Shown one piece after another: positions 1-42,726 of a stretch of 64,000 nt of DNA (its first letter is position 1; the number at the start of each line of letters is the position of its first letter). The stretch comes from a virus: IMG/VR virus record IMGVR_UViG_3300017917_004503, positions 87,374 to 151,373 of that record. The stretch is one strand, 5' to 3'. Both the position numbers and the translations under genes were made by a program. The notes under the pieces are model-generated. The model did no database searches and was not told the DNA's origin. It was given only the letters and a program-made list of their open reading frames with translations.

Positions 1-603
1 TCAAACGACGAAGGCAACGGAACACAGGGGCAAGCAGAGGTTCAGCAAGTTAAAAAAGCTGTGGATCAGATTTCTAAAGATGGAAGTAAACCTAATGCTG
101 AAACCGGTGATCTAATTAAAAAACTTTTGGGCAGTGACGAGTTTAGAAGGCTTCTAAAATTCCAACAATCTTCTAGTTTTCTTGAAAATTATCAAATGCC
201 ATTGAGCTTTCTGACTGGTGCCCCTATAGGTGAATGGCATTTAACAATAGGAAATCCTTGCAACCCAATTGCCATGATAGGTAATTTGGTGTGTACTGAC
301 GTTAAAATAGACTTTACAGAGGTTTTAGGACCTGATGATTTCCCAACCGGAATAAAGGCTACCTTTACATTAGAACACGGAAGAGATCGAGAAAGAGGCG
401 AGATAGAAAGCATCTTTAACCGAGGCGACGGTCGTCTATATCACTCTGCACAGGAAACCTCTGCAAATCAGCAAAGTTTCACTGCATTTGCAGATACTGC
501 AGGCAATGTTTTAACATACGATTCTCCTGGATCTTTAATGGATGGTTTCTGGAACTCTCAATTAAATACTATCCCAGATCAATTGGGACCAAATAACCCT
601 TAA
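1..603 (+). CDS. 5'-truncated virion/baseplate protein (possibly gp48/gp54-like tail-tube initiator fold)
   Basis: Frame is open from base 1 to TAA at 603; HLTIGNP..PIAMIGNLVCTDVKIDF..LGPDDFP segment; immediately upstream of gp53-like and hub genes. Confidence 0.45.
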   Translation, partial: SNDEGNGTQGQAEVQQVKKAVDQISKDGSKPNAETGDLIKKLLGSDEFRRLLKFQQSSSFLENYQMPLSFLTGAPIGEWHLTIGNPCNPIAMIGNLVCTDVKIDFTEVLGPDDFPTGIKATFTLEHGRDRERGEIESIFNRGDGRLYHSAQETSANQQSFTAFADTAGNVLTYDSPGSLMDGFWNSQLNTIPDQLGPNNP

Positions 604-606
604 TTT

Positions 607-1197
607 ATGGCATTAATGATTGATACTATATCTACTAATAAAAAAGTTTTTAACCCGAATCCGGAATTGAATAGTACAGGAAATTATGGGGTTTGGGATT
701 TGACACAAGGTTCTATAACTTATTCTGGGGTTGGTGTTCAAATACAATCTTTGTTCACTGTTACTGAATATCTACAAATGAGACCCGACTTAATTTCACA
801 AATTAAATTATCAGATCAGGGTAAGATGGGATCGCTTTTAAAGTTTAATTCAATCAGTAATCCCTTTTCTCTTAACGAAGGACAAATTTTGGCAATACCC
901 TCAACTAGAACTATTGATGAAAGTTTCAGAGTTAAAAAAATAGAACAGCAATCAGGTACTTCTAACACTAATACAAATCCAGCAAACACTTTTAAGAAAA
1001 ATCAAGAGCAGAAGAAGTTTAAGGTAAGTGAAGGCAGAAAGAAATTCTTGGATGAGAAAGTAAAAAATCCTCCCGGATTAAATTTACCTCCTAATATGTT
1101 ACAACCAGGAGAATCTACAATTCAAAGGGAGAATGGATTTATAATCTTCGCACCAAATGCTGGAGGTGGTGGGAGTAACACGCCTCAAACCAATTAA
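607..1197 (+). CDS. baseplate wedge protein, T4 gp53/LysM-like
   Basis: RPDLIS...LLKFNSISNPFSLNEGQILAIP matches the LysM-like gp53 pattern; baseplate context. Confidence 0.65.
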   Translation: MALMIDTISTNKKVFNPNPELNSTGNYGVWDLTQGSITYSGVGVQIQSLFTVTEYLQMRPDLISQIKLSDQGKMGSLLKFNSISNPFSLNEGQILAIPSTRTIDESFRVKKIEQQSGTSNTNTNPANTFKKNQEQKKFKVSEGRKKFLDEKVKNPPGLNLPPNMLQPGESTIQRENGFIIFAPNAGGGGSNTPQTN

Positions 1198-1217
1198 TAA
1201 CATCTAATTCTGAATAA

Positions 1218-2777
1218 ATGGAAAGAGATTCTATTATTATTTCTGTGATTGCCAATAATAACGTTAAGCTGGATGAACAAAATCAGGTTGATCGAGCTAA
1301 TGGCTCTGTTGATCAGGAAACCCTGAGGAATGCGAATGAAATATCTGCCCAAATAACGGGTTTAAATGTTCCCTTTATTACTATTAATGGTTATTCTGTG
1401 ACCAATTATTTAACTAGGTTTTCTCTAGATCTTTCAGGTTTTTTACCTGTGATGAAATTTTCTTTTATTGCCGCACAAAACGTTTTCATTTCAGTTAACT
1501 ATCCAAAAGATGGAGATCTGGCTTCTCTTTATATGAGATCGCCGGGAGAAATTTATAAACCGATAAGGATGGATTTTAACATCTTGAGTGTTCATAGTGA
1601 AGTTTCCAGTAAGTATTCAGAAACTGGATCTGATCCTGATGGAAAGGGGATTAATTTAAGATTCAATATAGTAGCAGAATGCAGAGTCCCAGGACTTTAT
1701 TCGAATAGAATCAAATCTTATCCAGTTACCAGTTCTTTCGATACCCTTCTACAGGCAGCACAAGAGATAAATTTGGGGTTTGCTTCTAACGAGAAGACAC
1801 TAGAAGATAACATGACTTGGATTTGCCCTAATTATTCTTTTTTTGACTTTTTTCAAGAGGTCTCAATTAGAGCTTTTAAAGACGATCAAACCAGTTTTTT
1901 TGATTGCTGGATTGATCCGTATTATAATTTGAATTTTGTGAATCTGGGTAATCAATTTGCCTATGAAACAGATCCTCAACAAGAAGTAATGTTTCTTCCT
2001 GGATATACCAATAAAGGGTTGAAAGTTGATTCAGGATACCCCGGTTCTAATACACCAGATTTAATTCAAACCAAATTAGTTTTAACAAACTTTTTCGGAT
2101 CAGCAGAGCTTCCTTTTTATATTAACGGATACACTCTAACCTCTAGAGCAGGAAGTAATGTTAATAGCATGGGGTATATTACTGAAATATCTTTTTATGA
2201 TGAAAATATACTTAAAGAAGATCCTAGTCAAAAGTACATTAAATATGACATCGAATCATTTACAACCGAAAATGTTGGAAGTGGAGCAGTCTTACAAAAA
2301 GGAAGAGCCAGAGATAACGAATACAAAGAAGAAAAAAGAAGAGAGTGGTTAGGCGTTTTAAATTCACAAGTCACACCAGACGATGGGGTTCATCCAAACT
2401 ATCTTCATGCAAAGTTTCAAAATCTTGTAAATATAAACGATTGTACAAAACTAACACTGGAAGTTGAACTTGATAATTATTTTCCTGGTATTTATAGAGG
2501 AATGGTAGTTCCCGTCGCAATTTATATTTTTGACGATGGCACTAGAAAACAAAATGCAGGTAACATTTCAAATTCACAAGATAATACTGGTTCTGGTCCA
2601 ACTAAGGATATTTTTTTATCCGGTAACTATGTTGTTATGGGTATGACAGTAAACTGGTCGTTTAGTTCTGGTGGGATGAGACAATATCTTACTTTGGCCA
2701 AAAGAACTTGGTATCTAAATACATCAGGATCTATACCTAAAGCATTTCCTATTTCTGTCAAAAATAACAAATTTTGA
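1218..2777 (+). CDS. putative baseplate hub protein (gp27/gpD-like)
   Basis: 519 aa, lies between gp53-like and gp5-like genes; C-terminal LSGNYVVMGMTVNW...QYLTLAKR is typical of hub proteins. Confidence 0.55.
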   Translation: MERDSIIISVIANNNVKLDEQNQVDRANGSVDQETLRNANEISAQITGLNVPFITINGYSVTNYLTRFSLDLSGFLPVMKFSFIAAQNVFISVNYPKDGDLASLYMRSPGEIYKPIRMDFNILSVHSEVSSKYSETGSDPDGKGINLRFNIVAECRVPGLYSNRIKSYPVTSSFDTLLQAAQEINLGFASNEKTLEDNMTWICPNYSFFDFFQEVSIRAFKDDQTSFFDCWIDPYYNLNFVNLGNQFAYETDPQQEVMFLPGYTNKGLKVDSGYPGSNTPDLIQTKLVLTNFFGSAELPFYINGYTLTSRAGSNVNSMGYITEISFYDENILKEDPSQKYIKYDIESFTTENVGSGAVLQKGRARDNEYKEEKRREWLGVLNSQVTPDDGVHPNYLHAKFQNLVNINDCTKLTLEVELDNYFPGIYRGMVVPVAIYIFDDGTRKQNAGNISNSQDNTGSGPTKDIFLSGNYVVMGMTVNWSFSSGGMRQYLTLAKRTWYLNTSGSIPKAFPISVKNNKF

Positions 2778-2812
2778 TTTCAGGATAAATATTAAAAATA
2801 ATCACCAAGAAA

Positions 2813-5104
2813 TTGCTTGCAACAGATCAACAAAGAAGTTTATTCCTCAAGGGATTTAAACTTTCAAACCAAGGAAAATATGAAGATCCAACTTATCTAG
2901 GATTTAAGATAGTTTTCGATTTCGGAGTTTTACCTGTGAGAGCTGACGATGGGTTAGCTCCAAGTCCTCTTTTTAGGATAGGAAGTTATGAGGATCAACA
3001 ATTTTTTCCTTTAAATCCATTTGCTCAACCACAGTATTCGTATAAGACTGGTCCTAATATAGCTTATTATTCCGCTGCTGAATACCTCAGACAAAGAGAG
3101 CAAAACTTTCCCCGTGGTGGAAAGAGGGCAGATATGTTGATTCAGTTTCGTAATTTATTAAACGATCTTGTTTCAAATTCACCATGGTTTTTACAATCTA
3201 TCGATGGTTTGGACCAATTGGAAAAAGTAGAGCGTCCAGGATTTCCCACATTGGATATCGGTGGTTTTGATCCACAGAGAACAGGTAATAAGGTATTAAC
3301 TTTCAACACTTTAGAGTCTCTGAATTTAAGAATGACTGCTTTAGCTGATCTTTATAATCAGGCTACTTTTGATTATGATAATATGAGGGAACTAGTCCCT
3401 AGGAATCTCCGAAGATTTACGATGTTTATCTTCGTTCAAGAAATTAGAAATTTCTTTAAAACTTCTAGATTGATTGGTTCTTCTGCAGCTTTAACTTCAC
3501 TCAACAATCTATCTGATCTACTGGGAGCAGGTAATAATCCTGGCAGTAATCTCGGAGCAGCTACTAACATAGCGAATCAGTTTGGACAGGAATTTGGTCA
3601 AGCTAATTCTGGTGGTGGAGGACCATTATCTTCTTTTGTAGGTAACGTATTTAATAATTCTGGTGTTGATAATGACTATGCTATATTCACAAATCAGCAG
3701 GATCAAAGCGGGATTAAGCCAATGCTAATCTATGAATGCAGAAATTGTGAATTTGATTTTAGCGACAGTACACCAATACCTAGCTCTATAAACGTTGGTG
3801 TTGATACAGCTACACCTGTTGGACAGAGCTTTAGAATTTTGGTTGGAAAGGTTAGAAAGAAGAGTCAATATCCAAATATCAGGCAAGATGGAAAGCCCTT
3901 AATTCTTGCTGATAGCTGGGATTCTTCTCGCTCGTCTGTTCAAAAAAATCCACAAGACACGAATGACATCTTATCTATTGGCGAAGAGCTTTTAACTAAC
4001 TTTGTAAGTAATTCACTAAACGATCTTATTAACGAAGGTATAAATAATTATGTTCTACCTGCGATTGCAGGAGCAGATAGATTAGCCTTAGGTAATGTTT
4101 ATAGTTTAGATCCTGGACAGATCTTATCAGATCTATCCTTTAACAATGCACAGAATTTTCTAAATCAATTGGGTAACGTCTCTGAAATTTCACTTCCTAA
4201 TCCACAGACTTTAGGACAAGGTGGACCTCCAGAGAGGGTTTATATTAAACCAACTGGTGACGTTTATGCACAGGTTCCAGGAAGAGATCTTGGTGTTCCT
4301 GAAAGAGTTTACGTTAAGCCTAGTGGAGATTCCTATCCTGATGTACCAGGAAGGGATTTAGGGGTTCCTGGAAGAGTTTATAATACTCCATCTGGTGATG
4401 CCTATCCTGATGTTCCTGGTAAGGATCTCGGTGTTCCAGATAGAGTTTACACTCCACCTTCAGGTGATGCCTATCCTGATGTTCCAGGAAGAGATCTTGG
4501 TGTTCCTGATAGAGTTTATCCTTTACCAACTGGTGATGTCTATCCTGATGTTCCAGGAAGAGACCTCGGTGTTCCAGATAGAGTATATCCACCATCAACC
4601 GGAGATGTTTACACCGACGTACCTGGTAGAGATTTAGGTGTTCCTGATAGGGTTTACGGTAAGCCAGGAGGAGATGTTTATTCGAATGTTCCTGGTACAG
4701 ATTTAGGTGTTCCTGATAGAAATTACAATAAACCTCAGGGAAAGGTTTATCCTGATTCCCAGCCTTCTCCTAAATTAGGTGAATCGCAGGTTTATCCTGA
4801 TTTTATTCCATCATCTCCTATCGATATTTCGTCTCAAAGAGTTTATACAGATACTCCAAAAGTTAGTTACAACGGAGAACTGAGAGATGAATCTAATACT
4901 TTCTCGAGTAATCCTGGAAGAGTCTATCCTGTCAACAAACCTTTTTCTGGTCAGAGTAGAGGAGATATCGGAAAGGCTTATCCTGAGACTACAGGAGATT
5001 TCATAATCGAAAAACCTTTAAATCTAGGAAATCTTAAACCAGAAGACAAATATAATATTAGTCTGGGACAAAACAATCCAGATCCTAATCAATTTGAAGA
5101 TTAA
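2813..5104 (+). CDS. virion structural protein with 23-aa Pro-rich tandem repeats
   Basis: 763-aa ORF (TTG start) in the baseplate cluster, preceded by GATAAATA; N-terminal EDPTYLGF and WFLQSIDGL motifs. Confidence 0.55.
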   Translation: MLATDQQRSLFLKGFKLSNQGKYEDPTYLGFKIVFDFGVLPVRADDGLAPSPLFRIGSYEDQQFFPLNPFAQPQYSYKTGPNIAYYSAAEYLRQREQNFPRGGKRADMLIQFRNLLNDLVSNSPWFLQSIDGLDQLEKVERPGFPTLDIGGFDPQRTGNKVLTFNTLESLNLRMTALADLYNQATFDYDNMRELVPRNLRRFTMFIFVQEIRNFFKTSRLIGSSAALTSLNNLSDLLGAGNNPGSNLGAATNIANQFGQEFGQANSGGGGPLSSFVGNVFNNSGVDNDYAIFTNQQDQSGIKPMLIYECRNCEFDFSDSTPIPSSINVGVDTATPVGQSFRILVGKVRKKSQYPNIRQDGKPLILADSWDSSRSSVQKNPQDTNDILSIGEELLTNFVSNSLNDLINEGINNYVLPAIAGADRLALGNVYSLDPGQILSDLSFNNAQNFLNQLGNVSEISLPNPQTLGQGGPPERVYIKPTGDVYAQVPGRDLGVPERVYVKPSGDSYPDVPGRDLGVPGRVYNTPSGDAYPDVPGKDLGVPDRVYTPPSGDAYPDVPGRDLGVPDRVYPLPTGDVYPDVPGRDLGVPDRVYPPSTGDVYTDVPGRDLGVPDRVYGKPGGDVYSNVPGTDLGVPDRNYNKPQGKVYPDSQPSPKLGESQVYPDFIPSSPIDISSQRVYTDTPKVSYNGELRDESNTFSSNPGRVYPVNKPFSGQSRGDIGKAYPETTGDFIIEKPLNLGNLKPEDKYNISLGQNNPDPNQFED
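4232..4750 (+). repeat. coding tandem repeat, 7 full 69-bp units plus a partial unit (xRVYxxPxGDxYPDVPGRDLGVP)
   Basis: Seven DLGVP copies at 23-aa spacing with synonymous divergence. Confidence 0.9.
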
Positions 5105-5106
5105 TT

Positions 5107-5808
5107 ATGCCGAGTGAAAGAGTCTATTTGGGTCAAATCGTAGATAATAAAGATCCCTTATACCAGGGAAGAGCAAGGGTAAATGTTTTTGGTTTTTTCG
5201 ATGGAATACCGACTGAAGATCTACCTTGGGCAGAGCAGATAGCTGGACTTTCCTTTGATGGAGGATTCGGAGGCGGAAATATCTCTATTCCTAGAATAGG
5301 TACTGTTGTTGCTGTTCATTTTGAGGAGAATAATTACTATAAAATGAATTATCACTACATTAAAGAGATCTCTCCTTCGTTATTAGAAGAGCTTAAACAA
5401 GAAAATTCATACGAGGGTACTCAATCAATAGTCTATGACACCGAAGCTCAGCCAGGCACACTTAAAATGATTTATACGAGGAAAAATGGTTTGGTCTTTC
5501 AATTAGGTGATGCAACAATTCAACTTGATACACAGAATGCTGGAACTGATAAAGAAAAACTCAGAATCAAGATAAAGATGAATGATGATGAGATTAGAAT
5601 GGAGAAGAATGCGGGTAAGCAAAAAGTAATTATCAAGTCTGGAAACATAGAGCTAGGTGAAGAAGCTGTTGAAAAAATTATTTTAGGTAGCACCTTTTTG
5701 GATTTCTTTAATAAGCATACACACCCAACCGGGGTTGGACCATCTGGTGTTCCCGTGATACCTATGATAGATCAAGTTCATTTAAGTCAAGTTTCAAAAA
5801 CTAAATAA
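5107..5808 (+). CDS. baseplate central spike, gp5/VgrG-like OB-fold
   Basis: GQIVDNKDPLYQGRARV, LPWA and IPRIGTVVAVHF OB-fold motifs; C-terminal HTH (FNKHTHP) metal-binding tip; no lysozyme domain. Confidence 0.8.
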   Translation: MPSERVYLGQIVDNKDPLYQGRARVNVFGFFDGIPTEDLPWAEQIAGLSFDGGFGGGNISIPRIGTVVAVHFEENNYYKMNYHYIKEISPSLLEELKQENSYEGTQSIVYDTEAQPGTLKMIYTRKNGLVFQLGDATIQLDTQNAGTDKEKLRIKIKMNDDEIRMEKNAGKQKVIIKSGNIELGEEAVEKIILGSTFLDFFNKHTHPTGVGPSGVPVIPMIDQVHLSQVSKTK

Positions 5809-5809
5809 C

Positions 5810-7516
5810 ATGCCAGCTGATTGGGTATCTTTTATAACAAATGTTTCTAATAAACTTGACGGTCAATCCATTCAAGCTTCTTATGATTCTGCGGGTTCAG
5901 ATGTTGATGATTTTGCAACTTATCTGGCACAACAGTATACAAATGCTACAGTCGGTAAAGCACAATCCCCTTACGGCAATACACATGTGAAGGGTAACGA
6001 ATCCATTTTGATAGCAGGATTTTCCGAGGCTTTTAAGAAACTAGAATCCGAAAGATCCCCTACCTTTGAAGAAAAATCCAAAGATCCTAACTATAAAGAT
6101 TTAAAGGAAGAACCAACTGAGCAACAACTTGAATCGGCTAGATCGAAATTTGATCTAGATTTTTTAGCTTGGGCTGAAGAAAATGGTTCAAACATACCGG
6201 ATTTCATATATTCTCAATTTTTTAGTCAATATCCTGGATTTCCCAATACAGAGGAGCAAAGGGTTCTTGAATTAGCTAGAAGAATTATTAATCAATTTGA
6301 CGGAACTTCAGATTATTTACAATGGATATACACTTTAAAGATACAGAATGATGAGTATAAAACTATATCTAGCAAAGTTTATGATAAAATTTTAGAATTA
6401 ACCAAGGGACTAGGGTCTTCTGAGATAAAAGTCGGGGATGAAGTTCAAGGACTTTCTCTTTATCCTTTGAATCCAAACGGAACTGAAAATAGAAATTCTC
6501 CAAATAAGGGCGGTGAATTGATAAGAGGTAAGGTTTCATCTATTAATAAAATTAAAATACCTCTCTTATCAGGATCTAATATTTATTCAGTGACAGTAAA
6601 TTCAAATGGTAAAAACATAGAAAGAATTTTAGTTCCTGATACTATTCAAAAGAAAATTAATGTCTCTGATTTTCGTAATGTTAGAAACGTGAATTTATCT
6701 AAAAAAATCTTACAAGAAGACCATGTATCTGATCCTAGCAGAATACCTAATTATTTGACATCTAAATTCATTACCCGTTTCACATACGATCCAAACAATG
6801 ATAAAAATCTTTTTTATAGGATAATTAGAGCTACGCTAAATTTAGTTAATTATGATGGGGTTCAAAATTCCATAAACCAAAATCTATCTCCGAATAATGT
6901 ACTTTATAGTGGATCTATTACTAAATTTTTAGACGGAGATTTTACTAATGCACAAATACAAGGCGCTAATATTCTAAGTACTCAGTTCCTTAACAATTCT
7001 AGAAATTATAAAGATTCTCTTAGCGTAAATAATTTTCTAGTATCACTTTCCTCTAAAAAATCCACGTCATATTCAGTTGAAGCCTCGAGATTTCTCCAGC
7101 TTAAAAGATCTTACATTGATTATTTAGTTCAAGAATCTAAAATACAGGATGAATCTGTCAATACTGAAGATCCATATTACAAAATGGCTGATAGTGTTAT
7201 AAAATACTGGATTAGTTGTTTACAACAACCTCTTTCTTCGTCTCCTCCTGTACCACCTTGTACAATATTACCGCCATCAAACGGTGTTTATGTTGGTGTA
7301 TATTATGGATCTATAAAAAAACTAGGAGACAGTTTACGCCGTGCATTTAACGATGGCAAAAGTTTCAAGACTGGTAAAACTGGAAAAATAGTTGCAAGTT
7401 CTTTGGCTTCATCTTTCCAAAAGCATTTACTAGAACTAAAATTTATTTATAATGGTGGTATCCCTACAACAGGTGGACCTGTACCAATGTCAGGATTTGT
7501 TTCGTTAGTTTTTTAA
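5810..7516 (+). CDS. hypothetical virion protein
   Basis: 568-aa ORF starting 1 nt after the spike gene stop; no recognised family. Confidence 0.5.
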   Translation: MPADWVSFITNVSNKLDGQSIQASYDSAGSDVDDFATYLAQQYTNATVGKAQSPYGNTHVKGNESILIAGFSEAFKKLESERSPTFEEKSKDPNYKDLKEEPTEQQLESARSKFDLDFLAWAEENGSNIPDFIYSQFFSQYPGFPNTEEQRVLELARRIINQFDGTSDYLQWIYTLKIQNDEYKTISSKVYDKILELTKGLGSSEIKVGDEVQGLSLYPLNPNGTENRNSPNKGGELIRGKVSSINKIKIPLLSGSNIYSVTVNSNGKNIERILVPDTIQKKINVSDFRNVRNVNLSKKILQEDHVSDPSRIPNYLTSKFITRFTYDPNNDKNLFYRIIRATLNLVNYDGVQNSINQNLSPNNVLYSGSITKFLDGDFTNAQIQGANILSTQFLNNSRNYKDSLSVNNFLVSLSSKKSTSYSVEASRFLQLKRSYIDYLVQESKIQDESVNTEDPYYKMADSVIKYWISCLQQPLSSSPPVPPCTILPPSNGVYVGVYYGSIKKLGDSLRRAFNDGKSFKTGKTGKIVASSLASSFQKHLLELKFIYNGGIPTTGGPVPMSGFVSLVF

Positions 7517-7521
7517 AAACC

Positions 7522-7549
7522 GGAACTTATTGGTGGATATATACTAAGA
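7522..7549 (+). promoter_or_regulatory. putative overlapping promoters: GGAAC-N18-TAAGA and GATATATA (7536-7543)
   Basis: Both motifs recur upstream of other genes in the window. Confidence 0.5.
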
Positions 7550-7575
7550 TTGTTTAACTTCTTAATAAAAAAAAT

Positions 7576-8763
7576 ATGACTGATTTTCTCAAAGAAAACG
7601 AACCAAAAACAAACGACTTTAACTGGGACATTCAAAATGGGATCAAACCCAACAAGAAATTGAAGAGAGTTCCTGCAGGATTCAAGGTGTTCTGTCATGA
7701 ACCTTATGCACAGGCTATGCTAGATTCCTACAACCAATTTTTTTCAGGATCCTCCCAAGTTGATGAATATGCTAAGGATTTATCCGAAGGTATGGTTTAT
7801 TCTTGTAGGATTGTAGTTCTGAAAGAAGACGAGGCACTAGCACAAACTTCGACAGGACAAACTATCTACATTGATCTAAAGAAAGAGAAAAAAGACGCGG
7901 AAAAGCTCAATATTAGCGGCTTAACATTTAACATCGGAGATACAGTTCAGGCTAGGATTAGAGTTTCTAATTCTAACTATTATGGTTCTGTTATTGAATA
8001 TTATATCCACAGCTTGAGACTGGAACTTTTTGAACAAATCAAAAAAGAAAACAGTGCTTATAGAGTAAAAATCGAAAGCATAAATAAGGGCGGATACATC
8101 GTAGATCTTTCTGGTATTAAGTGCTTCTTACCAGGTTCGTTAGCTGCGGCAAACAGAATTACCGATTTTGAATCATATTTAGGTAAAGAAATCCATGTTA
8201 TGATCGAGGGATATGTTGAGTCTAAGGACATTTTTATAGTTTCTTACAAGAAGTATCTTAGTAAAATTATGGAATCTAAGATACAAGAGCTTGATTTAAC
8301 TAAAAAATATAAAGGATTCGTTACTGGAACTAGTGAGTTTGGAGTTTTTGTTGAATGGGAGGAAGTTTACACTGGTCTTATTCATAAAACAGAATTCTTA
8401 GAGGATTCTGAGCTTACTTCAATCCATCCTGGAGACGAGATTGAATTTTACGTTAAAGAGATCAAGGATAACAATCGTCTTACTTTAACTCTAGAGAAAC
8501 CTTTAGAAAGAAATGTAATTATCCAAGATTTAGATAATCAAATTAAAGAAGGATCTATTGAACCACAAGAAGCGCGTATTAAGCACAGAAGAAAAAATGG
8601 AATTCTCGTTGACTTAATTAATCTTGGATTAATGGCCTTAGTCCCTCAGGAAAAGATTGGAAAGAAATCTAAGAATCTTAAACCTGGGGATGATCTGCTA
8701 GTTTTAGTTTATGAAGTTGAACCTTCTAGCGGAAAAATTTACGCTAGAACATTCAATGACTGA
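7576..8763 (+). CDS. rpsA: 30S ribosomal protein S1-like, multiple S1 domains
   Basis: S1 repeats (NKGGYIVDLSGIKCFLPGS; GFVTGTSEFGVFVE...TGLIHKTE); N-terminal DFNWD resembles Bacteroidota RpsA; shorter than cellular S1. Confidence 0.8.
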   Translation: MTDFLKENEPKTNDFNWDIQNGIKPNKKLKRVPAGFKVFCHEPYAQAMLDSYNQFFSGSSQVDEYAKDLSEGMVYSCRIVVLKEDEALAQTSTGQTIYIDLKKEKKDAEKLNISGLTFNIGDTVQARIRVSNSNYYGSVIEYYIHSLRLELFEQIKKENSAYRVKIESINKGGYIVDLSGIKCFLPGSLAAANRITDFESYLGKEIHVMIEGYVESKDIFIVSYKKYLSKIMESKIQELDLTKKYKGFVTGTSEFGVFVEWEEVYTGLIHKTEFLEDSELTSIHPGDEIEFYVKEIKDNNRLTLTLEKPLERNVIIQDLDNQIKEGSIEPQEARIKHRRKNGILVDLINLGLMALVPQEKIGKKSKNLKPGDDLLVLVYEVEPSSGKIYARTFND

Positions 8764-11417: not shown

Positions 11418-11426
11418 TTGACTATA

Positions 11427-13157
11427 ATGAATATTTTTAAAAAGAACAACATATTAATTAATGGTTTACTAAACGATACTTTCGTTTTTCTTCAAGACAC
11501 TTATAATCAGACTGCTGCCATGTTTACTGTAGCTTCGGCTTGGGGTCAGATTCTTTTTGTTCTTCAAAACCTTTCTCAGATGATCCTGTATTTCATAGAG
11601 GATTCTATAACAGAACTTAATATAGAACAGGCATCAAGAGACTCTTCAATTAGAAGCTTAGCCAGAATAGCTGGATATGATCCTGGAAGAGCATCAACTG
11701 CTCAGGGAGAAGTTATTTTATCCTGGAATAGAAGAGAATCTGATGTCGGTGGAGGTGCAGTTATCATTAACAATAAATCTCAGATAAGATGTGATCAAAA
11801 TGGAAAGGTTTATTCTATGATATTCGGCTCAACCCGTGTTACTCTTCCATTAGCTTCAAGCTCAAGTCCTCTGAGAGTTAAAATAGCACAGGGTGATTTC
11901 CAAACTGCAATTGTAACTGGAACCGGTTTAGCTCTCCAGAGTTTTAACCTACCTTCTGCTAGCGCTGCTTTTCTGGATCAATTTTACGTAGATGTCTATG
12001 TGAACGAAGAAAAATGGAAGATGTTTGATTCTTTATATGATATTCCACTCAACGGTAAAGGATTTATAGTAAGAACCGGTATTCAAGAGGGACTGGACGT
12101 CTATTTCGGAAATTCTAATTTTGGGATGGTTCCTCAGAGAGGAGCCAGAATTAGAATAGAATATCTTCAAACGTCAGGTGTATCTGGAAATGCCGCATCA
12201 ACCAAAGATACTCCGTTGACGTATCGATTTGTATCAACTGGTACCGATTTATTTGGTAGTGAGGTTGACCTTAATAACTATTTGGTGATAGCTAATTCCA
12301 TTGATCCTTCATTTGGATCTAATCCTGAGCCATTAAACCTTGTTAGATTAGTAGCTCCTAAAACATCTAGATCTTTCGTTTTTGCTAATTCTACTAACTA
12401 TGAGATATTCCTTAATAAGCTTGGAATTTTTTCTCAAGTTCAAGCCTTTACGACTTTTGATGATGAGTATTTGGATGATGATAATGTCATTTACATTTAT
12501 CTTGTTCCGGACGTTACCCTAAATATAAGTTCGAATGAAGATTATTTTAGTATTCCAGTATCAAACTTTCTTTTAACCCAACAACAGAGATTAAGTGTCT
12601 TAAACTTAATAGAAGATTCTGGATCTATGATTGCTACGACGGTAGTTAAAATAGTTGAACCTGTTATAACTAGATACGTAGCTAATGTTGTTATTACGAT
12701 GTTTGAAGGATTTGATCCTGAAACCATTAGACAAGAAATCAGAAATAAAATATCCGATTATATGTTAAATCTCAAAAGAAGAGATTTTATACCAAAATCC
12801 GATATGATTGCTATAATAGAGTCAGTTGAGGGAGTTGATTCAGTTTCTTTCTTCTTCGTTGGACAAAAAAATGAAGCTAATCAGATATTAATGAGATCTT
12901 TAACTAATGTTACACCAGCTCAGATGGAACAACAAATAGGACTGAATTCATTCGGTGATATTATAATTGGAAGAAATGAATTGGTTGTTTTAAGAGGTGG
13001 ATGGACAGATAGAAATGGAATAAATTACGAGGAATCTATTACCGCAGGTAAACCTGGACCTTTAAATATTAGTATTTCTAACATAGTTCAGAGAGGATAT
13101 AACTCAGGACTAAATACTGATTTAAAAAGACAAATCATAGCATCATCTACAGTATAA
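11427..13157 (+). CDS. baseplate wedge subunit, gp6/baseplate-J-like
   Basis: ASRDSSIRSLARIAGY, VYFGN..FG.VP..GARIRIEYLQTSG..GN and ESVEGVDSV; ATG at 11427 (TTG 11418 is an alternative). Confidence 0.8.
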   Translation: MNIFKKNNILINGLLNDTFVFLQDTYNQTAAMFTVASAWGQILFVLQNLSQMILYFIEDSITELNIEQASRDSSIRSLARIAGYDPGRASTAQGEVILSWNRRESDVGGGAVIINNKSQIRCDQNGKVYSMIFGSTRVTLPLASSSSPLRVKIAQGDFQTAIVTGTGLALQSFNLPSASAAFLDQFYVDVYVNEEKWKMFDSLYDIPLNGKGFIVRTGIQEGLDVYFGNSNFGMVPQRGARIRIEYLQTSGVSGNAASTKDTPLTYRFVSTGTDLFGSEVDLNNYLVIANSIDPSFGSNPEPLNLVRLVAPKTSRSFVFANSTNYEIFLNKLGIFSQVQAFTTFDDEYLDDDNVIYIYLVPDVTLNISSNEDYFSIPVSNFLLTQQQRLSVLNLIEDSGSMIATTVVKIVEPVITRYVANVVITMFEGFDPETIRQEIRNKISDYMLNLKRRDFIPKSDMIAIIESVEGVDSVSFFFVGQKNEANQILMRSLTNVTPAQMEQQIGLNSFGDIIIGRNELVVLRGGWTDRNGINYEESITAGKPGPLNISISNIVQRGYNSGLNTDLKRQIIASSTV

Positions 13158-13690: not shown

Positions 13691-16600
13691 ATGTCCAATT
13701 TTTTCTATAGAAGACTAGAATTTTTCGATAAAACAGGAAGTCCTTTAAATCTTGATTATGTAGGACCGACCGGACCGACTCCTTTAGATTCGAGATTCAC
13801 TTTCGTGACCGGAGCAACTGCTTCATCTTTGGGGTATTGTTCTGTTAGTCAATTTGATTCTGATCCCGGTTCAATAAGTTTCAACTACACCGATTTTAAC
13901 AATTTCAGTTTAGCTTCTTGGGTTTCAGAAGTTAATGATTTTCTATTGAATGGTGCAGAGGTTTTTTTAAACGGTAGGGTTGCAGGCCAAAATCAGTTTT
14001 CTGGAAAAATCCAGTCTGTGACTGATAATACCACTTTCTTTACAGTTAATTTTTTTCCTGACAGCATACAGGGTCAAAGATTAATAAGTTTAGATAATCA
14101 AATCTTTTTTAATAGCACATATAAATACAGACCTGGCGGTTATTGGAGAGGTAACATTTATTTCGATCCAGTTTCGTCTGGACTTTATGAAAACCAACAA
14201 ATTTTCGTAATCCAGAATTTTGACGTGGTTGGATCAAAATTTTATGGCCACCCGCATACTGGAGTTACAGGTGCAACTGCAGCCAAATGGAGAACCCGCT
14301 GGTATAATGATAGTTACGGCAATACTGATGTTTCTGAAATTATTTTTACCTATAAGATACAAGAAGATCTTTCCGGTGGAGATGGTTATCCCCTTATAGT
14401 TTCGTATCCTAATGTGGTTTACCCTATAGATGTTTATCCAACAGACACTTTAATTTCTGGTGGTTATGTAGAAACTCTTTCTGTAGACTCGTCTGCTTTG
14501 TCAATAAACGTCGCACTTAATGCCAGCGATTTAGCTGCAAACATATATGAGAGAAAATTAATCATAGAAGACATAAGTGCTGGACCGACAGGTCCTATTA
14601 AAGTAGCTGAAATAGATTTTTACGGTGAAGTTGTAGGTGAAGATGAAAGATTCAAAGTCATGTTACAAAACATAGGAAGGGCTTTTTATCCAAGTGACTC
14701 TCTAATTCTAAGAGACCATGATCCATCCGAGCCCTTACCAAATTTTATAGAAATTAATGAAAAGAGAAAAGAACTTCTTTTATCAGGAGAAGAGATTTTT
14801 CCTTATGCTGGAAGTTATAAAGGTCTTATAAGTGCTATCAAATTTTTTGGTTATCAAGATTTGAGAATTAAAGAATATTGGTTAAATCTGGAGTATCAAA
14901 GTTTAAAGCTTGAATCGCCTCTTCAGCAGAATGCACAATTTCTAAATCAAATAAAAAGACAGCAATCAAACGGATATTCTCAATCCTACCAGATTGGTGA
15001 TGTTCTAGATAATCCTAATTCTGGAAAGTATAGAATGGTTCAAACTTATGGACCAGATCAGGATGGGAATTATATTTTAGATGTCTCTAGTGAGGACACA
15101 TTAGTTCCAAGCAGAACTTATAAAAAGACATCTTTGTTTGGTCTTTTTTATGATATTACCAAAACAACTGGTATTGAAGGAGAATTCGGATATCCTGAAG
15201 TTGTTGACGCTTTCCAATTTACACAGGAAGAAGTTTTAATAAAACTTTTTGCACTTAAGGAAAGATTGAAAAGAGACTATCTACCGATTAATGCTAGAAT
15301 AGTTGATATAACAGGAGAAGGAGTTTATTTTAATGTCTATAACACTAAAGCTTGGAGCGACGTTATGGAAAGACCTGATATTGAATCGGGTATTTATGCA
15401 GAGGTCAGGTCAAATCCAGATTTTGGGTTTCTTGAAGATTTAAGAAATTTTGAGATAAGACCCTCAAGCTTAGCAATACAAACTCCAAGCAACTATTATG
15501 ATACTTTTACTATAGACGCTGCTGTTGCAGGTGGAACTGGATCTGCCTTTTTCTTTTCTGGTATTCCTGCTACTGGACCAAACCCAACCTTATCTGTAAC
15601 TGCAGGAAAAACGTATAATTTTAATTTTTTAACCGAAGATTTTGATTTGTTTTTAACAACCAACCAAAATTTAACGCAGTCAGATCCTGTTGGTGTTACT
15701 AATAACGGAGCTACTTCAGGAGGACCAAATCTAACTTGGTATGTTAATCCTCTACAGAGCTCACCTGTCTATTACTATTCTTCGAAGAATAAGTCTTTGT
15801 TGACCGGTTCTATAATCGTTTTACCTTCTGAATTATCTGATCTTGGTAACATCGTTAATCCTCTATCAAATCAACAAATATTTACACCACAGCAGAACGA
15901 ATCGCTTCTTTCTGCCATAGGTAACTTTTATGAACTTAAACAACAAGGACAAATTGTTGAGCTTGGTGATGGTAAATATGATCCACCGTCTTTTATTAAT
16001 CCTACAACGGGAGAACCGTACGAGGTTCCTGTTGGTATGCCTATAATATTAGAACTCATCACTGATGTTTGGACTTGGGACGAGTTGAATATTAATTGGT
16101 CTGCCCTATTAATACCTGTTTTTAGAATAGGAAATAGAGTTCAAAGAAAATCTGACGGAGAATTTGGAAGTGTAACTGCAGTTAATTATTCAACCGGAAT
16201 TTATACAGTACTCCTTGACGATTTAACTGTGATTACTGTGGATGAATCTGAGCTTTTTTCGACCATCCAGAATTATGCTCTTTTAACATGGAAGAATATT
16301 GATTTTTCAAATTTGGTTGAGATTGAATGGATAATAAACAAACCTTCTACCCAATCAGGATCACCTTATAATTTCCAATTTAGAGGATCTATAGTGGACT
16401 TTTATAAGTTAGCCCACTTTGTACCATATACAGGAATTTATCAAGTCACATGTAACATTTATGACGCTTTTAACGCAAAAACCGTTGTTATAAAAAACCA
16501 AGCCATTGTCGTTAATCCTAAAATTGTAGATATCGATGCCTGGACTAGATATAGAGAGGTTGAAGACTACAGATGGACGAACGTTCAAAAATCTTGGTCT

Positions 16601-18892
16601 GATTATGATTCCATTTGGGAGTATCCAGCAGAAGGTGAAACTATCGAACAGCTAGAAAAAAGTATACCTAGTGAGATTCTCGATTTTGCAACATATGGTA
16701 ATAAATCAGAAGAGGGTCAGGATGTTTATGTAAGAGTTCAGGTAGATCCAGTCGGCGCTACTGGTTTTATTAACTTTACTCAATCTGAATTTACTATAAC
16801 CGAGATATCTTCAAATTTAATTATTCCTGGTCAATATGCTTTTGCCAAAGTCTACACGTCGACTCCTCATGGCCTAGTCAATGATCAAGAAGTTAGTATT
16901 TTTAACACAATACCTCAGATAAACGGTAGATGGAATGTAACAGTACCTGACGGAGCAACCTCTGAATTTATCATACCAATTACGATTGATCCTTCATGGA
17001 ATAATGTGTTAATATTATCAACACCAACTAGATTAGCCGTAGATGGAAGCTTTTTCACTAATCAGTATTTAACCCCTTCGGGATCTATCGAGGTTTTTGT
17101 TAATGGTAGATTGATTGGATCCGCAGAGGCAGGAGATAATTTGTACACCACTGTTAATTCTATAGTTTCCTCTATAAATTCACTACGAACATTCCCTGAT
17201 TATTTTGCTTCTTGTACTGTTCCAAGTGAGGATCCAGTAACACTTTTGATTAGTGCTCCAAATGAACTTGGTGCTGATCAAAATGGAGTCGAGTTAACGT
17301 ATAATGTCTCCGGATCTCTATCGGTTTCGTCATATTCTACTGGACTTTCAGGAGGATCTAGCATTACTGAATCCTATGTTTATTGGAGTGAATCTAGTGA
17401 AGAATATCCAAACGCTAACCTAAAATATTGGGGAACTAAAAATCTGGATTGGAATATTTTTACAGAAAATTCATGGGATGACGCTTATGCCCATTCTTGG
17501 TTTGACTTTGAGTTTAATAATGATTGGTTGGGTGGATTTGAACTTCATAATTTGTCTCCTGGAGATTTTGTAAAAGTTAGTACAGCTAATGAATTTTTCC
17601 CCTTTCCTATTGGGATAACAGTTCAGCCGGGTGTTTCTAGCTTAAGTGTTCAAGAATTGGCAGATCAGCTCAATAATTCATCGGACCCAAATATAACTAA
17701 TTTCTACTATAGACCAATACCAAATGAAAATGGAGATTCTGATGTTGATAGTCCACCTATTAATTTAGAAATACAAAACACATTAATACCAGCTTCAGCA
17801 TATTCTCCTGCACTCTCATTGATTGGGGGAAGTGGAGTATTGATAGCTAATTTCACATACACTGGAGGCACAGTTTTATTACCGACAACAACAACCACTA
17901 CTAGTACATCGACTAGTACAACAACGACAACAACTGCACCTCCAACCAGTACGACAACATCGACTTCGACAACATCGACAACATCGACAACAACTGCACC
18001 TCCGACTAGTACGACAACATCGACTTCGACAACATCGACAACGACTATTGCTCCAACGTCTACAACGACATCGACAACATCGACTAGTACGACTACGACA
18101 TTGCCACCAGGAACTTTTACTTTGAGTACTTCTGGAATTTCTAACATCCTTACATCGTATGGATTTGCACAGACTTCTCCTTTCAGTATTTCTTATCTTT
18201 CTGGAACGAACCTTACACCAGGATCACCTGTAACATTTACCCCTACTTTTGGTAACAGTGGTGTTATATTAGCTTCGAGCTCATCGACCACACCATCAAC
18301 ACAACTTGTTTTCCAAACTGCTCCAACGACAGTTAGCGCATCAATGATAACATATCCTGGAGGGGCAATTTACATAGGAACTGTCACAGGTACTGGAACT
18401 ACTAGAAACGTTGTATGGTCTTCTGTTAATTTGGTTGGTATAACTTCTATGGCTGTAAATATTACTGCTTCGACTTTAACAACCACAACTAGTACAAGTA
18501 CCACAACAACAAGTACAAGTACTTCAACCACGACAACTACGACAACGTTAGCCCCAGGAACAGGTAAATTTAAGAACAGTGGATCAATAGTTATGACATC
18601 ATATAGCTTAAATCAGACTGCACCATTTAGCACATCTCTTACATCTGGATCTAATCTAACACCAACTAGTTCTGCAACTTTTAGTGCTTACTTTAACTCT
18701 GGAACCTCTTTACAGTCTTCTGTGACGTTCAATAGTTCTCCTACAACAGTTACCGCTACTTTAACGAGATATCCTTCAGGAACAACAACTAATGGATCTA
18801 TAACAGGAAGCGGAAGTAGTAGAACAATAAGCTGGAGCGCAGTAGATCTTTCAACCTCTACATCTTACCAGATACAGATTGGTGGATCTTAA
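13691..18892 (+). CDS. large baseplate wedge protein (gp7-like) with mucin-like Thr-rich linkers and two C-terminal beta domains
   Basis: FPYAGSYKGLISAIKFFGY..IKEYW resembles the gp7/gpI tail-formation core; follows gp25 and gp6; 1733 aa. Confidence 0.6.
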   Translation: MSNFFYRRLEFFDKTGSPLNLDYVGPTGPTPLDSRFTFVTGATASSLGYCSVSQFDSDPGSISFNYTDFNNFSLASWVSEVNDFLLNGAEVFLNGRVAGQNQFSGKIQSVTDNTTFFTVNFFPDSIQGQRLISLDNQIFFNSTYKYRPGGYWRGNIYFDPVSSGLYENQQIFVIQNFDVVGSKFYGHPHTGVTGATAAKWRTRWYNDSYGNTDVSEIIFTYKIQEDLSGGDGYPLIVSYPNVVYPIDVYPTDTLISGGYVETLSVDSSALSINVALNASDLAANIYERKLIIEDISAGPTGPIKVAEIDFYGEVVGEDERFKVMLQNIGRAFYPSDSLILRDHDPSEPLPNFIEINEKRKELLLSGEEIFPYAGSYKGLISAIKFFGYQDLRIKEYWLNLEYQSLKLESPLQQNAQFLNQIKRQQSNGYSQSYQIGDVLDNPNSGKYRMVQTYGPDQDGNYILDVSSEDTLVPSRTYKKTSLFGLFYDITKTTGIEGEFGYPEVVDAFQFTQEEVLIKLFALKERLKRDYLPINARIVDITGEGVYFNVYNTKAWSDVMERPDIESGIYAEVRSNPDFGFLEDLRNFEIRPSSLAIQTPSNYYDTFTIDAAVAGGTGSAFFFSGIPATGPNPTLSVTAGKTYNFNFLTEDFDLFLTTNQNLTQSDPVGVTNNGATSGGPNLTWYVNPLQSSPVYYYSSKNKSLLTGSIIVLPSELSDLGNIVNPLSNQQIFTPQQNESLLSAIGNFYELKQQGQIVELGDGKYDPPSFINPTTGEPYEVPVGMPIILELITDVWTWDELNINWSALLIPVFRIGNRVQRKSDGEFGSVTAVNYSTGIYTVLLDDLTVITVDESELFSTIQNYALLTWKNIDFSNLVEIEWIINKPSTQSGSPYNFQFRGSIVDFYKLAHFVPYTGIYQVTCNIYDAFNAKTVVIKNQAIVVNPKIVDIDAWTRYREVEDYRWTNVQKSWSDYDSIWEYPAEGETIEQLEKSIPSEILDFATYGNKSEEGQDVYVRVQVDPVGATGFINFTQSEFTITEISSNLIIPGQYAFAKVYTSTPHGLVNDQEVSIFNTIPQINGRWNVTVPDGATSEFIIPITIDPSWNNVLILSTPTRLAVDGSFFTNQYLTPSGSIEVFVNGRLIGSAEAGDNLYTTVNSIVSSINSLRTFPDYFASCTVPSEDPVTLLISAPNELGADQNGVELTYNVSGSLSVSSYSTGLSGGSSITESYVYWSESSEEYPNANLKYWGTKNLDWNIFTENSWDDAYAHSWFDFEFNNDWLGGFELHNLSPGDFVKVSTANEFFPFPIGITVQPGVSSLSVQELADQLNNSSDPNITNFYYRPIPNENGDSDVDSPPINLEIQNTLIPASAYSPALSLIGGSGVLIANFTYTGGTVLLPTTTTTTSTSTSTTTTTTAPPTSTTTSTSTTSTTSTTTAPPTSTTTSTSTTSTTTIAPTSTTTSTTSTSTTTTLPPGTFTLSTSGISNILTSYGFAQTSPFSISYLSGTNLTPGSPVTFTPTFGNSGVILASSSSTTPSTQLVFQTAPTTVSASMITYPGGAIYIGTVTGTGTTRNVVWSSVNLVGITSMAVNITASTLTTTTSTSTTTTSTSTSTTTTTTTLAPGTGKFKNSGSIVMTSYSLNQTAPFSTSLTSGSNLTPTSSATFSAYFNSGTSLQSSVTFNSSPTTVTATLTRYPSGTTTNGSITGSGSSRTISWSAVDLSTSTSYQIQIGGS
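17881..18100 (+). repeat. low-complexity coding repeat (poly-Thr/Ser, TTTSTSTT..APPTS)
   Basis: acaacatcgac-type repeats; a second Thr tract lies at about 18470-18547. Confidence 0.9.
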
Positions 18893-18894
18893 TC

Positions 18895-18922
18895 GGAACT
18901 TTAACTTGCTTTTCTGATAAAA
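18895..18922 (+). promoter_or_regulatory. putative promoter GGAAC-N18-TAAAA
   Basis: Same bipartite motif occurs at 7522, 49577 and 58100. Confidence 0.45.
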
Positions 18923-18928
18923 TTTTTT

Positions 18929-19894
18929 ATGATTAATAAAAAGATTACTTTTATATGCGCACAGCCAGATGTGCCATATTTTCACTGGCAAGTTGAGGTT
19001 TTTTTACATAATGCAATGAAAAACGGTATTAATCCAAATTGGATTGAAATACTTTTTGCTTATGATACAAGCCCTTCGAATGCTGGTGTTTCTTTAGCCT
19101 CTAGATACCCTTATGTTAGGTTCTTTTTTTATAAAAAAACCCCATGCGAGAACTATGGGTATATTCCAATATTAAGACCAGATATTCTTGAGCAACACTT
19201 CGAGAGATTTCCACAGCTTTCTCAAGAACCAATTTTCTATCATGACTCTGATATAATTTTTAGAGAATTACCTGATTTTGAAAGTCTTCTATCTGATGAT
19301 AAATGGTATTTCAGTGACACAGTTTCTTATATTGGATCGAACTATATAAGGAGTAAATCAGAAGAGCTATTTGAGAATATGTGCGAAATAGCAGAGGTTC
19401 CCAAAGAATTAGTGATGGAAAATGAATTAAACTCCGGTGGTGCTCAATATCTAATGAAGGGAATAGATCATTTATTTTGGAGAGATGTGAAGAATGTTTC
19501 TTTAGACCTTTATAAATATATGCTTAAAAGGGAGGAAGACGAAAGAATCACCTTATCTTCGGATCAGCTTCTTCATTATAATCCTATCCAAAAGTGGTGT
19601 GCTGATATGTGGGCCGTTTTTTGGTGTGGTCTTAAAAGAGGGGCACAGATAAGAATATCTAATGAGTTAAGCTTTAGTTGGGGGTCAACTTACGGACAGG
19701 ATGAATGGAATAAGCATAAGATTTATCACAATGCTGGAGTTGTGAATAATCAGGACGGTAAGGTTTTTTACAAAGGAGAATTTATAGATAAATCCCCTTT
19801 CGATCACGATTTTTCACAAATAGATCCACAACATAACACGTACAATTATGTTCAAGCTATTTTATATGCTAAAGAAAAACGTTCTTTAGTATAG
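18929..19894 (+). CDS. GT-A glycosyltransferase resembling peptidyl-Ser/Hyp O-glycosyltransferases (SERGT1/HPAT-like)
   Basis: YFHWQ, YIPILRP, HDSDIIF (DxD), GGAQY, WCADMW and YHNAG in the order seen in GT95/GT96-type enzymes. Confidence 0.65.
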   Translation: MINKKITFICAQPDVPYFHWQVEVFLHNAMKNGINPNWIEILFAYDTSPSNAGVSLASRYPYVRFFFYKKTPCENYGYIPILRPDILEQHFERFPQLSQEPIFYHDSDIIFRELPDFESLLSDDKWYFSDTVSYIGSNYIRSKSEELFENMCEIAEVPKELVMENELNSGGAQYLMKGIDHLFWRDVKNVSLDLYKYMLKREEDERITLSSDQLLHYNPIQKWCADMWAVFWCGLKRGAQIRISNELSFSWGSTYGQDEWNKHKIYHNAGVVNNQDGKVFYKGEFIDKSPFDHDFSQIDPQHNTYNYVQAILYAKEKRSLV

Positions 19895-25718: not shown

Positions 25719-26486
25719 TTAATCCTTTCCTAATTTTGGGTTTTTTTGTTCCCAATCATCAAAAGTTTCCTCTATGATTTTTACTATAGGATCCCTCACT
25801 ATATCAGAAACCGAAAAATTCATAGTACCTATATCTTCTTTGTCGTCAAATAACTTAATTACAAGATCCAGTGCTGACATTCTAGAGTTTTTAATGTCTA
25901 TTTGTTTGGTGTCTCCTGTTATGATCATTTTAGTATCCGTCCCAATTCTAGTCATAGTGGATCTCATGTTTTTCTGAGTTATGTTTTGGGCTTCATCCAC
26001 TATGATTATTGCATTGTCTATCGATCTACCCCTTATATAAGCTAAGGGTAAAACCTCTATGTATCCTTGGTCTAACATTAATTGTGTTAAAGACTCTCCT
26101 ATTAATTTATGAAAATTATCTAGGAAAGAAATAGTAAAAGGGTACATTTTCTCTTTTAGATCTCCTTTTAAAAATCCAACTTCTTCACCCTCTAAAACTG
26201 TTACACTTTTAACTAAGATTATTTTTTTAAATCTTTGATCCGTTTTGAGCAATTTTAGTGCTTGAGCACATGCAAGGTAAGTTTTACCCGTTCCTGCTGG
26301 TCCTGCTGCAATAGTGATTTTGTTTTCATTTATTAGATTTATGAGTTTTTTCTGGTTTTCATTCTTAAACTTGTAATCTAACTTAAGTTTTTGAAGATCG
26401 AATCTAGATCCATGCTGGTTTGGGTTTCCTGAATGAAACGTTTCGTAATACTCTTCATCTGTAATTTTCTTTTTTCTACTTGCCAT
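25719..26486 (-). CDS. phoH: PhoH-family ATPase
   Basis: GPAGTGKT Walker A, LAYIRGRS, IIVDEAQN, TRIG, GDTKQID and DIVR motifs. Confidence 0.93.
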   Translation of the reverse strand: MASRKKKITDEEYYETFHSGNPNQHGSRFDLQKLKLDYKFKNENQKKLINLINENKITIAAGPAGTGKTYLACAQALKLLKTDQRFKKIILVKSVTVLEGEEVGFLKGDLKEKMYPFTISFLDNFHKLIGESLTQLMLDQGYIEVLPLAYIRGRSIDNAIIIVDEAQNITQKNMRSTMTRIGTDTKMIITGDTKQIDIKNSRMSALDLVIKLFDDKEDIGTMNFSVSDIVRDPIVKIIEETFDDWEQKNPKLGKD

Positions 26487-42698: not shown

Positions 42699-42726
42699 TA
42701 AATAAATTAGAACAAAGTATTTAGAC

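Follow-up and report, generated by a model that had tools for sequence, protein, structure and literature searches.

The window analysed here is a stretch of 64,000 nucleotides that forms the last 64 kb (positions 87,374 to 151,373) of the 151-kb IMG/VR virus record IMGVR_UViG_3300017917_004503. It encodes a stand-alone GT-A glycosyltransferase directly downstream of a gene for a baseplate-module protein with two tracts rich in threonine and serine, which are the predicted acceptors of the enzyme. CheckV rates the record as approximately 52% complete, and the source phage is therefore large. The two genes, the parts of the upstream protein, and the gap between the genes are listed below.

13691-18892, + strand: baseplate-module protein of 1733 amino acids (aa), the predicted acceptor; it ends 36 nt before the enzyme open reading frame (ORF)
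17876-18109, + strand: Thr/Ser tract 1 (residues 1396-1473), with 47 Thr and 16 Ser among 78 residues and Pro/Ala spacers
18110-18460, + strand: inter-tract domain of 117 aa, which shares 43% identity with its homologue, the terminal domain (E 2e-23)
18461-18556, + strand: Thr/Ser tract 2 (residues 1591-1622), with 20 Thr and 6 Ser among 32 residues
18557-18889, + strand: C-terminal domain of 111 aa, a paralogue of the inter-tract domain
18893-18928, no strand assigned: gap of 36 nt between the predicted acceptor gene and the enzyme gene, covered by terminator and promoter scans
18929-19894, + strand: stand-alone GT-A glycosyltransferase of 321 aa, PHROG 4417, recognized from its ORF, PHROG profile, AlphaFold model, and structure searches

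A first-pass annotation, made from the sequence alone, had described a GT-A enzyme 36 nt behind a mucin-like baseplate gene, and both parts of that description were borne out. A strict poly-Thr/Ser tract, defined as at least 12 Ser or Thr in 15 residues with at least 6 Thr, is present in only one of the 129 genes of the 151-kb record, namely, the gene directly upstream of the enzyme, which is likewise the sole such gene in the window. Tract 1 holds a 60-nt tandem repeat (2.1 copies, 95% match). A small paralogous domain of approximately 115 aa follows each tract, and the 111-aa C-terminal domain is presumably displayed at the end of tract 2. The N-terminal 1390 aa of the protein (13691-17860) resemble unannotated proteins of the Lak megaphages of Prevotella and of phages of Tenacibaculum, Chryseobacterium, and Flavobacterium, a likeness that points to a Bacteroidota host.

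Fold and family of the enzyme

The enzyme ORF starts with ATG, and neither strand carries a rival frame of at least 60 aa overlapping it. It matches PHROG 4417, a family of unknown function, with an E value of 7.1e-62, protein residues 7-314 corresponding to profile positions 2-291 of 293. Clustering of the family gives 1827 groups at 90% identity and 822 at 50%, and the ORF, together with a family of this size, is far beyond chance. The five motifs quoted in the first-pass annotation (YFHWQ, YIPILRP, HDSD, GGAQY, and WCADMW) all lie within the 321-aa ORF and coincide with invariant or near-invariant columns in an alignment of 49 sequences, the columns concerned being W20, Y78, D106, D108, G171, Q173, W223, M227, and W228. 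Further invariant or nearly invariant residues are Y134, Q221, H267, G270, F280, and K282. The DxD motif, formed by D106 and D108, is invariant in the 49 sequences as well as in 148 relatives, and approximately 20 positions besides it are strictly conserved across the family.

The AlphaFold model of the enzyme, built on an alignment of 49 diverse relatives, has a pLDDT of 96.0 and a pTM of 0.93. It displays a GT-A (Rossmann-like) fold, which the structure searches back, with the DxD motif sitting after the fourth strand. The nearest solved folds are those of retaining GT8/GT24/GT6-type enzymes; the structural neighbours include glycogenin, the Skp1 alpha-galactosyltransferase Gat1, LgtC, the catalytic domain of UGGT, the xylosyltransferase domain of LARGE1, GlyE, and XXYLT1, and TM-scores against the nearest solved folds are approximately 0.45. 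In LgtC and glycogenin the third metal ligand is a conserved histidine near the C terminus. H267, invariant or nearly so in alignments of the window enzyme's family, is a candidate for the corresponding residue. The protein contains neither a signal peptide nor a membrane segment, strand beta-1 beginning at residue 7, and it is therefore predicted to be soluble and cytoplasmic. Judged from the model, it is probably a metal-dependent (DxD) GT-A glycosyltransferase of the cytoplasm.

In comparison with the retaining GT8, GT24, and GT6 enzymes, the family has conserved motifs of its own and no match to any Pfam glycosyltransferase model; Pfam assigned no family to the enzyme domain in the window protein, in 49 stand-alone relatives, or in 77 fused relatives. 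The GT8 model PF01501 (Glyco_transf_8) was matched neither by the window protein at E<=10 nor by the 49 relatives at E<=1, and hhalign against six bona fide GT8 proteins aligned the DxD regions with a probability of just 45% over 90 columns. The GT2 model did not match the enzyme domain in the window protein or in the 49 relatives. A sequence search of the Protein Data Bank (PDB) with the window enzyme returned no match. The sole return of a PDB profile search was a set of TALE-repeat proteins, which was rejected as an artefact of summing approximately 12 subthreshold repeats, each stretch having an independent E value (i-E) above 200.

The relatives are also largely without functional names. 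Two matches stood out in BFVD, an uncultured Caudovirales protein and Orf49 of Lactobacillus phage LP65, neither of which is functionally named; the remaining BFVD matches were weak and were to other GT-A transferases. In a homologue search from a Lacticaseibacillus prophage member, the Gram-positive branch of the family likewise consisted largely of hypothetical proteins, and among the relatives listed there were no functional names save "prophage pi2 protein 34" and one "Glycosyl transferas...". Homologues of the window enzyme were found by tblastn in 75 phage records. Megablast of the 13 kb surrounding the gene gave no match to isolated phages.

The first-pass annotation had allied the enzyme with the plant hydroxyproline arabinosyltransferases (HPAT, GT95) and peptidyl-serine galactosyltransferase (SERGT1, GT96), and this kinship failed every direct test with a hidden Markov model. 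The HPAT model PF23452 produced no hit at E<=10 in the window protein, in the whole phage record, or in five homologue-bearing genomes; of 49 relatives, one was hit, with an E value of 0.23, and a cutoff of E<=0.01 left none of the 77 fused relatives. In the structure search, the best matches were of the GT8/GT24/GT6 type, and there was no solved HPAT or SERGT1 structure among the PDB search matches. In ESM-Atlas, 22 of the 30 nearest named clusters belong to a set in which no Pfam family but HPAT is common (found, in one example, in 10% of members), and the kinship survives only as this lead from language-model neighbours. HPAT and SERGT1 are Golgi-lumenal enzymes with a type II membrane anchor, whereas the window enzyme lacks such an anchor and would work in the cytoplasm of bacterial hosts. 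The chemistry proposed for the window enzyme is nevertheless that of these plant DxD enzymes, which start glycosylation by linking a sugar directly to a hydroxyl of the peptide within extended tracts rich in Ser and Hyp.

Poly-threonine tracts beside the enzyme genes and peptide clusters beside fused relatives

A gene-neighbourhood survey, which the first-pass annotation had proposed as a check, covered 80 viral loci from IMG/VR, 80 loci from bacterial and archaeal genomes in GTDB, and isolated phages. Stand-alone forms of the enzyme, approximately 290-395 aa in length, were found in phages and prophages at 114 loci, and 112 of these loci entered the count for the next gene upstream on that strand (position -1). 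This gene encoded a strict poly-Thr/Ser tract at 76 of the 112 loci, compared with 29 of 966 (3%) of all other neighbours (odds ratio 68, Fisher p 6e-64). The rate was 8/545 downstream of the stand-alone enzymes and 1/445 beside the fused cellular forms described below. When the enzymes were clustered at 70% identity, 34 of the 55 clusters retained the pairing, and a looser cutoff, accepting runs of T6-T9, added approximately 9 more loci. When the tracts were masked, the -1 proteins fell into 19 mutually unrelated families, indicating that the enzyme tracks the tract and not any given partner gene.

The -1 partners range from siphophage major tail proteins of 200 aa to baseplate proteins of 1600-1800 aa. 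In tail-protein partners, including gp50 of phiFL1A and the corresponding proteins of Staphylococcus aureus, Gracilibacillus, Virgibacillus, and Clostridium luticellarii prophages, the last 20-25 residues are nearly pure Thr, and the major tail protein of the laboratory Enterococcus phage VPE25 (L168:6650-7267) has a run of ten Thr at its C terminus. In several Bacillota prophages, the gene at position -6, which is the position of the major head protein in phiFL1A, also ends in poly-Thr. Poly-Thr C termini on both the major tail protein and the gene in the major capsid position were seen in phiFL1A (gp45/gp50, L003) and at loci L144 and L160-L164 (positions -6 and -1). A tract-free subgroup of loci (L041, L047, L049-L051, L055, L060, L065, L069, and L073) encodes enzymes of 313-314 aa; it has no poly-Thr neighbour within 6 kb, and second transferase genes stand at positions +2/+3.

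The fused relatives are proteins of 450-1160 aa in which the enzyme domain is N-terminal in nearly all examined cases, with a further transferase or a tailoring domain behind it. Among the 77 fused relatives, the partners include Glyco_transf_7C (11 proteins), GT6 (3 proteins), and GT25 (2 proteins), in addition to GT2, Gly_transf_sug, methyltransferase, and one radical SAM/SPASM domain. A homologue of these fused C-terminal domains is encoded by a gene of its own at positions +1 to +3 in 46 of the 114 stand-alone loci; the 64-kb window contains no second transferase gene of this kind.

The 49 fused-form loci lie mostly on chromosomes of Chitinophaga, Pedobacter, Mucilaginibacter, Sphingobacterium, and Elizabethkingia and represent almost a single branch of the family tree. 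Their neighbours include C39-peptidase ABC exporters (28 loci), HlyD proteins (20 loci), GT2 transferases (17 loci), VKOR-thioredoxin proteins (17 loci), and thioredoxin/AhpC proteins (14 loci). A LanC-like protein, usually at position +1, was detected by BLAST at 20 loci, with Pfam E values from 1e-11 to marginal, and a radical SAM enzyme is encoded at some loci. At 24 of the 49 loci there were short ORFs in which a conserved double-glycine leader precedes a core rich in Cys; examples are L088:2188-2382 (+) and L143:3645-3851 (+), together with 29 further small ORFs in L090-L154. Of 31 cores, 18 have a Thr-Thr pair no more than 10 residues from the point of predicted cleavage; the expectation from shuffling is 4.0. 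At the end of one Chitinophaga core is a tail rich in Thr and Pro. On this sequence evidence, the fused-form clusters may encode an undescribed class of O-glycosylated peptides. Their glycocin-like context and Thr-Thr cores suggest that the conserved enzyme domain has a role on peptide threonines and that the enzyme family as a whole acts on such residues.

Gene setting, transcription, and possible sugar supply

Three further features bear on the setting of the enzyme gene and on its possible sugar supply.

11418-13157, + strand: baseplate wedge subunit (phrog_219, E 6e-29), two genes upstream of the enzyme
40689-44457, strand not given: tail-fibre PHROGs, assigned from PHROG matches
L167:584-8444 (source record, approximately 79-87 kb upstream of the window start), strand not given: sugar-nucleotide/transferase cluster

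By these gene assignments, the enzyme locus is placed inside a tail/baseplate module. The Ser-plus-Thr content of the genes near the enzyme is 0.20-0.28, versus a genome mean of 0.16, and the enzyme gene is part of a late structural block that is distant from the replication genes; the first-pass description of Ser/Thr-rich virion genes far from DNA metabolism agrees with the wider record. A PhoH-like ATPase gene (25719-26486, - strand; phrog_170, E 4e-70) interrupts the + strand structural block and is one of the very few ORFs of any size on the - strand.

A promoter-like motif of its own had also been ascribed to the enzyme gene, and this was not upheld. A sigma-70 scan found no site in the 36-nt gap, with site counts equal to the shuffled expectation (5 versus 5.2), and no terminator was found there. 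The sequence GATATATA recurs 10 times in the window, always on the + strand, versus 4.2 occurrences expected (positions 7536, 11027, 19908, 26699, 40658, 48444, 54015, 59012, 60852, and 63506). At least 7 of these copies lie approximately 20-35 nt upstream of start codons, and GATATATA is probably a phage promoter element. The gap contains no exact copy of it, only a degenerate variant. Because the gap lacks a terminator, a sigma-70-like site, and an exact GATATATA, cotranscription of the enzyme with the upstream gene is at least as likely as transcription from a promoter of its own.

The sugar-nucleotide/transferase cluster encodes an 875-aa fusion of an epimerase/dehydratase with a C-methyltransferase, a HAD-nucleotidyltransferase, a GT6 protein, a GT7C-like protein, and a GDP-mannose 4,6-dehydratase. 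This gene content suggests that the phage makes a 6-deoxy, possibly C-methylated, sugar. Both transferase ORFs, GT6 and GT7C-like, are similar in sequence to C-terminal domains found in the fused relatives (E 1e-13 and 7e-33, respectively), and by the logic of those fusions the two proteins are likely to be chain extenders.

Proposed virion O-glycosylation, its alternatives, and its relation to known systems

The reading that we favour, with a probability of roughly 0.7, is that the enzyme is a phage protein O-glycosyltransferase that starts sugar chains on poly-Thr tracts of virion proteins and that, in this phage, its acceptors are both tracts of the upstream baseplate-module protein. The enzyme would recognize the tracts and transfer a sugar from a nucleotide-sugar to the hydroxyls of Thr (and Ser), before or during assembly of the particle. 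The two tracts offer approximately 89 Ser/Thr residues near the C terminus of the 1733-aa protein, and the gene pair is probably cotranscribed. An alpha linkage is predicted, since the nearest folds are those of retaining enzymes. The GT6-like and GT7C-like transferases would then lengthen the chain, with sugars supplied through the phage's own genes at 584-8444. The product, and with it the presumed benefit to the phage, would be mucin-like, stiff, hydrated, and protease-resistant stalks bearing the two small terminal domains. O-glycosylation of Thr/Ser-rich virion proteins was the central proposal of the first-pass annotation, and it has gained strong backing from the coupling of the enzyme to tracts at position -1, from the 19 partner families, and from the peptide clusters around the fused relatives.

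Several points weigh against this reading. Glycans, mass shifts, and enzyme activity have yet to be seen with any member of the family. About one-quarter to one-third of the stand-alone loci have no neighbouring tract, and approximately 10 closely related loci stand in multi-transferase clusters instead of beside tracts. The loci share descent, so the Fisher p value overstates their independence; the 19 partner families and the 34 of 55 clusters are the safer measures. It is also possible that adjacency reflects cotransfer of a cassette and not an enzyme-substrate relation. LgtC and WbbM, which lengthen glycans carried by lipids or sugars in lipopolysaccharide (LPS) and O-antigen synthesis, lie within one Z unit of the protein-directed fold neighbours, and because of this tie the fold does not settle the acceptor. 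Finally, the nucleotide-sugar cluster could serve DNA or host-surface modification. The closeness of LgtC and WbbM in fold and a sugar supply that would suit either use also favour an alternative in which the target is host envelope polysaccharide, teichoic acid, or LPS (for exclusion or receptor masking) or phage DNA and the poly-Thr adjacency is incidental; DNA and O-antigen modification are the best-known activities of phage glycosyltransferases (PMC12619734). We consider such a target quite improbable, as it would make the -1 coupling over 19 unrelated partner families hard to explain. It also fits poorly with an enzyme that has no membrane segment, with a gene placed among late structural genes at a distance from those for replication, and with cellular relatives found in peptide-export clusters rather than polysaccharide loci.

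Less remote, though still unlikely, is that the enzyme serves the proposed pathway of virion glycosylation as an extender, lengthening the glycan after another phage or host enzyme has added the first sugar to Thr. Many of its structural neighbours (GlyE, Gat1, LARGE1, UGGT, XXYLT1, and LgtC) add to existing glycans, and the phage encodes two further transferases. Against this, it is the enzyme domain that is constant beside tract genes, whereas the second transferase varies (GT7C, GT2, GT6, or GT25) or is absent, 68 of the 114 stand-alone loci having no such gene in the flanks examined; the N-terminal position of the enzyme domain in most fusions examined also counts against an extending role. 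We give very little credence to a sugar-phosphate or other nonglycosidic transfer to Thr, of the Stealth/GNPT-like kind, or to an inactive tract-binding assembly factor. Stealth/GNPT-like matches fall 4-5 Z units below the GT8-type ones and the Stealth hit was not significant, and strict conservation of the DxD motif and approximately 20 other positions argues for catalysis.

The proposed initiating transferase has functional parallels in mucin-type O-glycosylation and in the glycosylation of serine-rich-repeat adhesins, carried out by ppGalNAc-transferases (GT27) in the former and by GtfA/B with GT8 enzymes such as GlyE in the latter, where dense Ser/Thr glycans produce stiff, protease-resistant stalks. 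In these systems, initiation is followed by extension through further GT-A enzymes. They differ from the window system in that their initiators belong to GT27 and GT4 and their acceptors are secreted cell proteins, whereas virus particles are assembled in the cytoplasm.

Glycosylation of virions by phage enzymes has precedent. Two reports describe capsid and tail-tube proteins glycosylated by the phages' own enzymes in the mycobacteriophages Che8 (gp108-110), Corndog (gp38), and Myrna (PMC12363180, PMC12619734), and the modification alters antibody recognition, according to the former (PMC12363180). The Bacillota prophages resemble the mycobacteriophage system in that their candidate acceptors are the C termini of the major tail protein and of the gene in the major capsid position. 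The tracts in the window, which would form internal stalks of a baseplate protein, are unlike these C-terminal sites. The enzymes also differ. Che8 gp108-110 are a GT2 transferase with a methyltransferase, a GT2-like protein, and a GT25 protein, and hhalign of the window family against gp110 gave a probability of 0.05%, so that the two are unrelated. The 75 phage records in which tblastn found a homologue include no Mycobacterium phage, and the C termini of the Che8 capsid and tail proteins contain no poly-Thr tract. The Che8 transferase genes are located at the right end of the genome, far from the capsid and tail genes, whereas the window enzyme gene lies beside its candidate acceptor gene.

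For the fused relatives, the closest comparison is with glycocin clusters, in which the known transferases, such as SunS of sublancin and EnfC of enterocin F4-9, are GT2-family enzymes from Bacillota (PMC8620827). As in glycocin clusters, a precursor with a double-glycine leader is encoded at the fused-form loci together with a C39-ABC exporter, proteins of thiol-disulfide chemistry, and a glycosyltransferase that would act on the peptide (PMC8620827). Unlike in glycocins, the constant domain is an unclassified GT-A domain that is often fused to a second transferase and encoded beside a LanC-like protein.

The first-pass annotation knew of no described system of this type in T4-like jumbo phages. 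The literature searched on phage tail and capsid glycosylation, Thr-rich tracts, and virion glycosylation contained no description of this enzyme family or of its pairing with poly-Thr, and that searched on Bacteroidetes glycocins described no such fused-transferase clusters; virion glycosylation itself is known from mycobacteriophages, with unrelated enzymes and different acceptor sites. Glycostaining of ten phages found nothing in a study that does not state whether any of them carries this enzyme gene (PMC12894461). The system is most likely a case of virion glycosylation in which the enzymes come from another, unclassified family, the acceptor signal differs, enzyme and substrate genes are tightly paired, and the host range is much wider.

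A broader proposal, to which we assign about even odds, is that PHROG 4417 and its fused relatives constitute a new glycosyltransferase family that places the first sugar on peptide Thr, building mucin-like tracts on the tails, baseplates, and capsids of phages of Bacteroidota, Bacillota, and other hosts and, in Bacteroidota, undescribed O-glycosylated disulfide-rich secreted peptides. Glycosylated virions are so far known from mycobacteriophages only (PMC12363180). If the proposal is true, sugar-coated Thr tracts would be present on many phages of Enterococcus, Staphylococcus, Listeria, and lactobacilli and on large environmental Bacteroidota phages, and the affected carriers would include laboratory and therapy-relevant phages and prophages. 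The hypothesis is open to direct test in phages that are already cultured; carriers of the enzyme gene include the Enterococcus phages VPE25 and phiFL1A, Chryseobacterium phage MA9V-3, and the Lacticaseibacillus prophages PLE3 and iLp84. More than 1800 proteins lacking functional names in the sources searched would gain a function, and Bacteroidota would gain a new class of glycosylated peptide. Virion O-glycosylation would then be widespread and not special to mycobacteriophages, depending on a different enzyme and on a simple, recognizable acceptor signal, and it would bear on how virion proteomics and cryo-electron microscopy (cryo-EM) maps are read and on phage stability, adsorption, and immune recognition.

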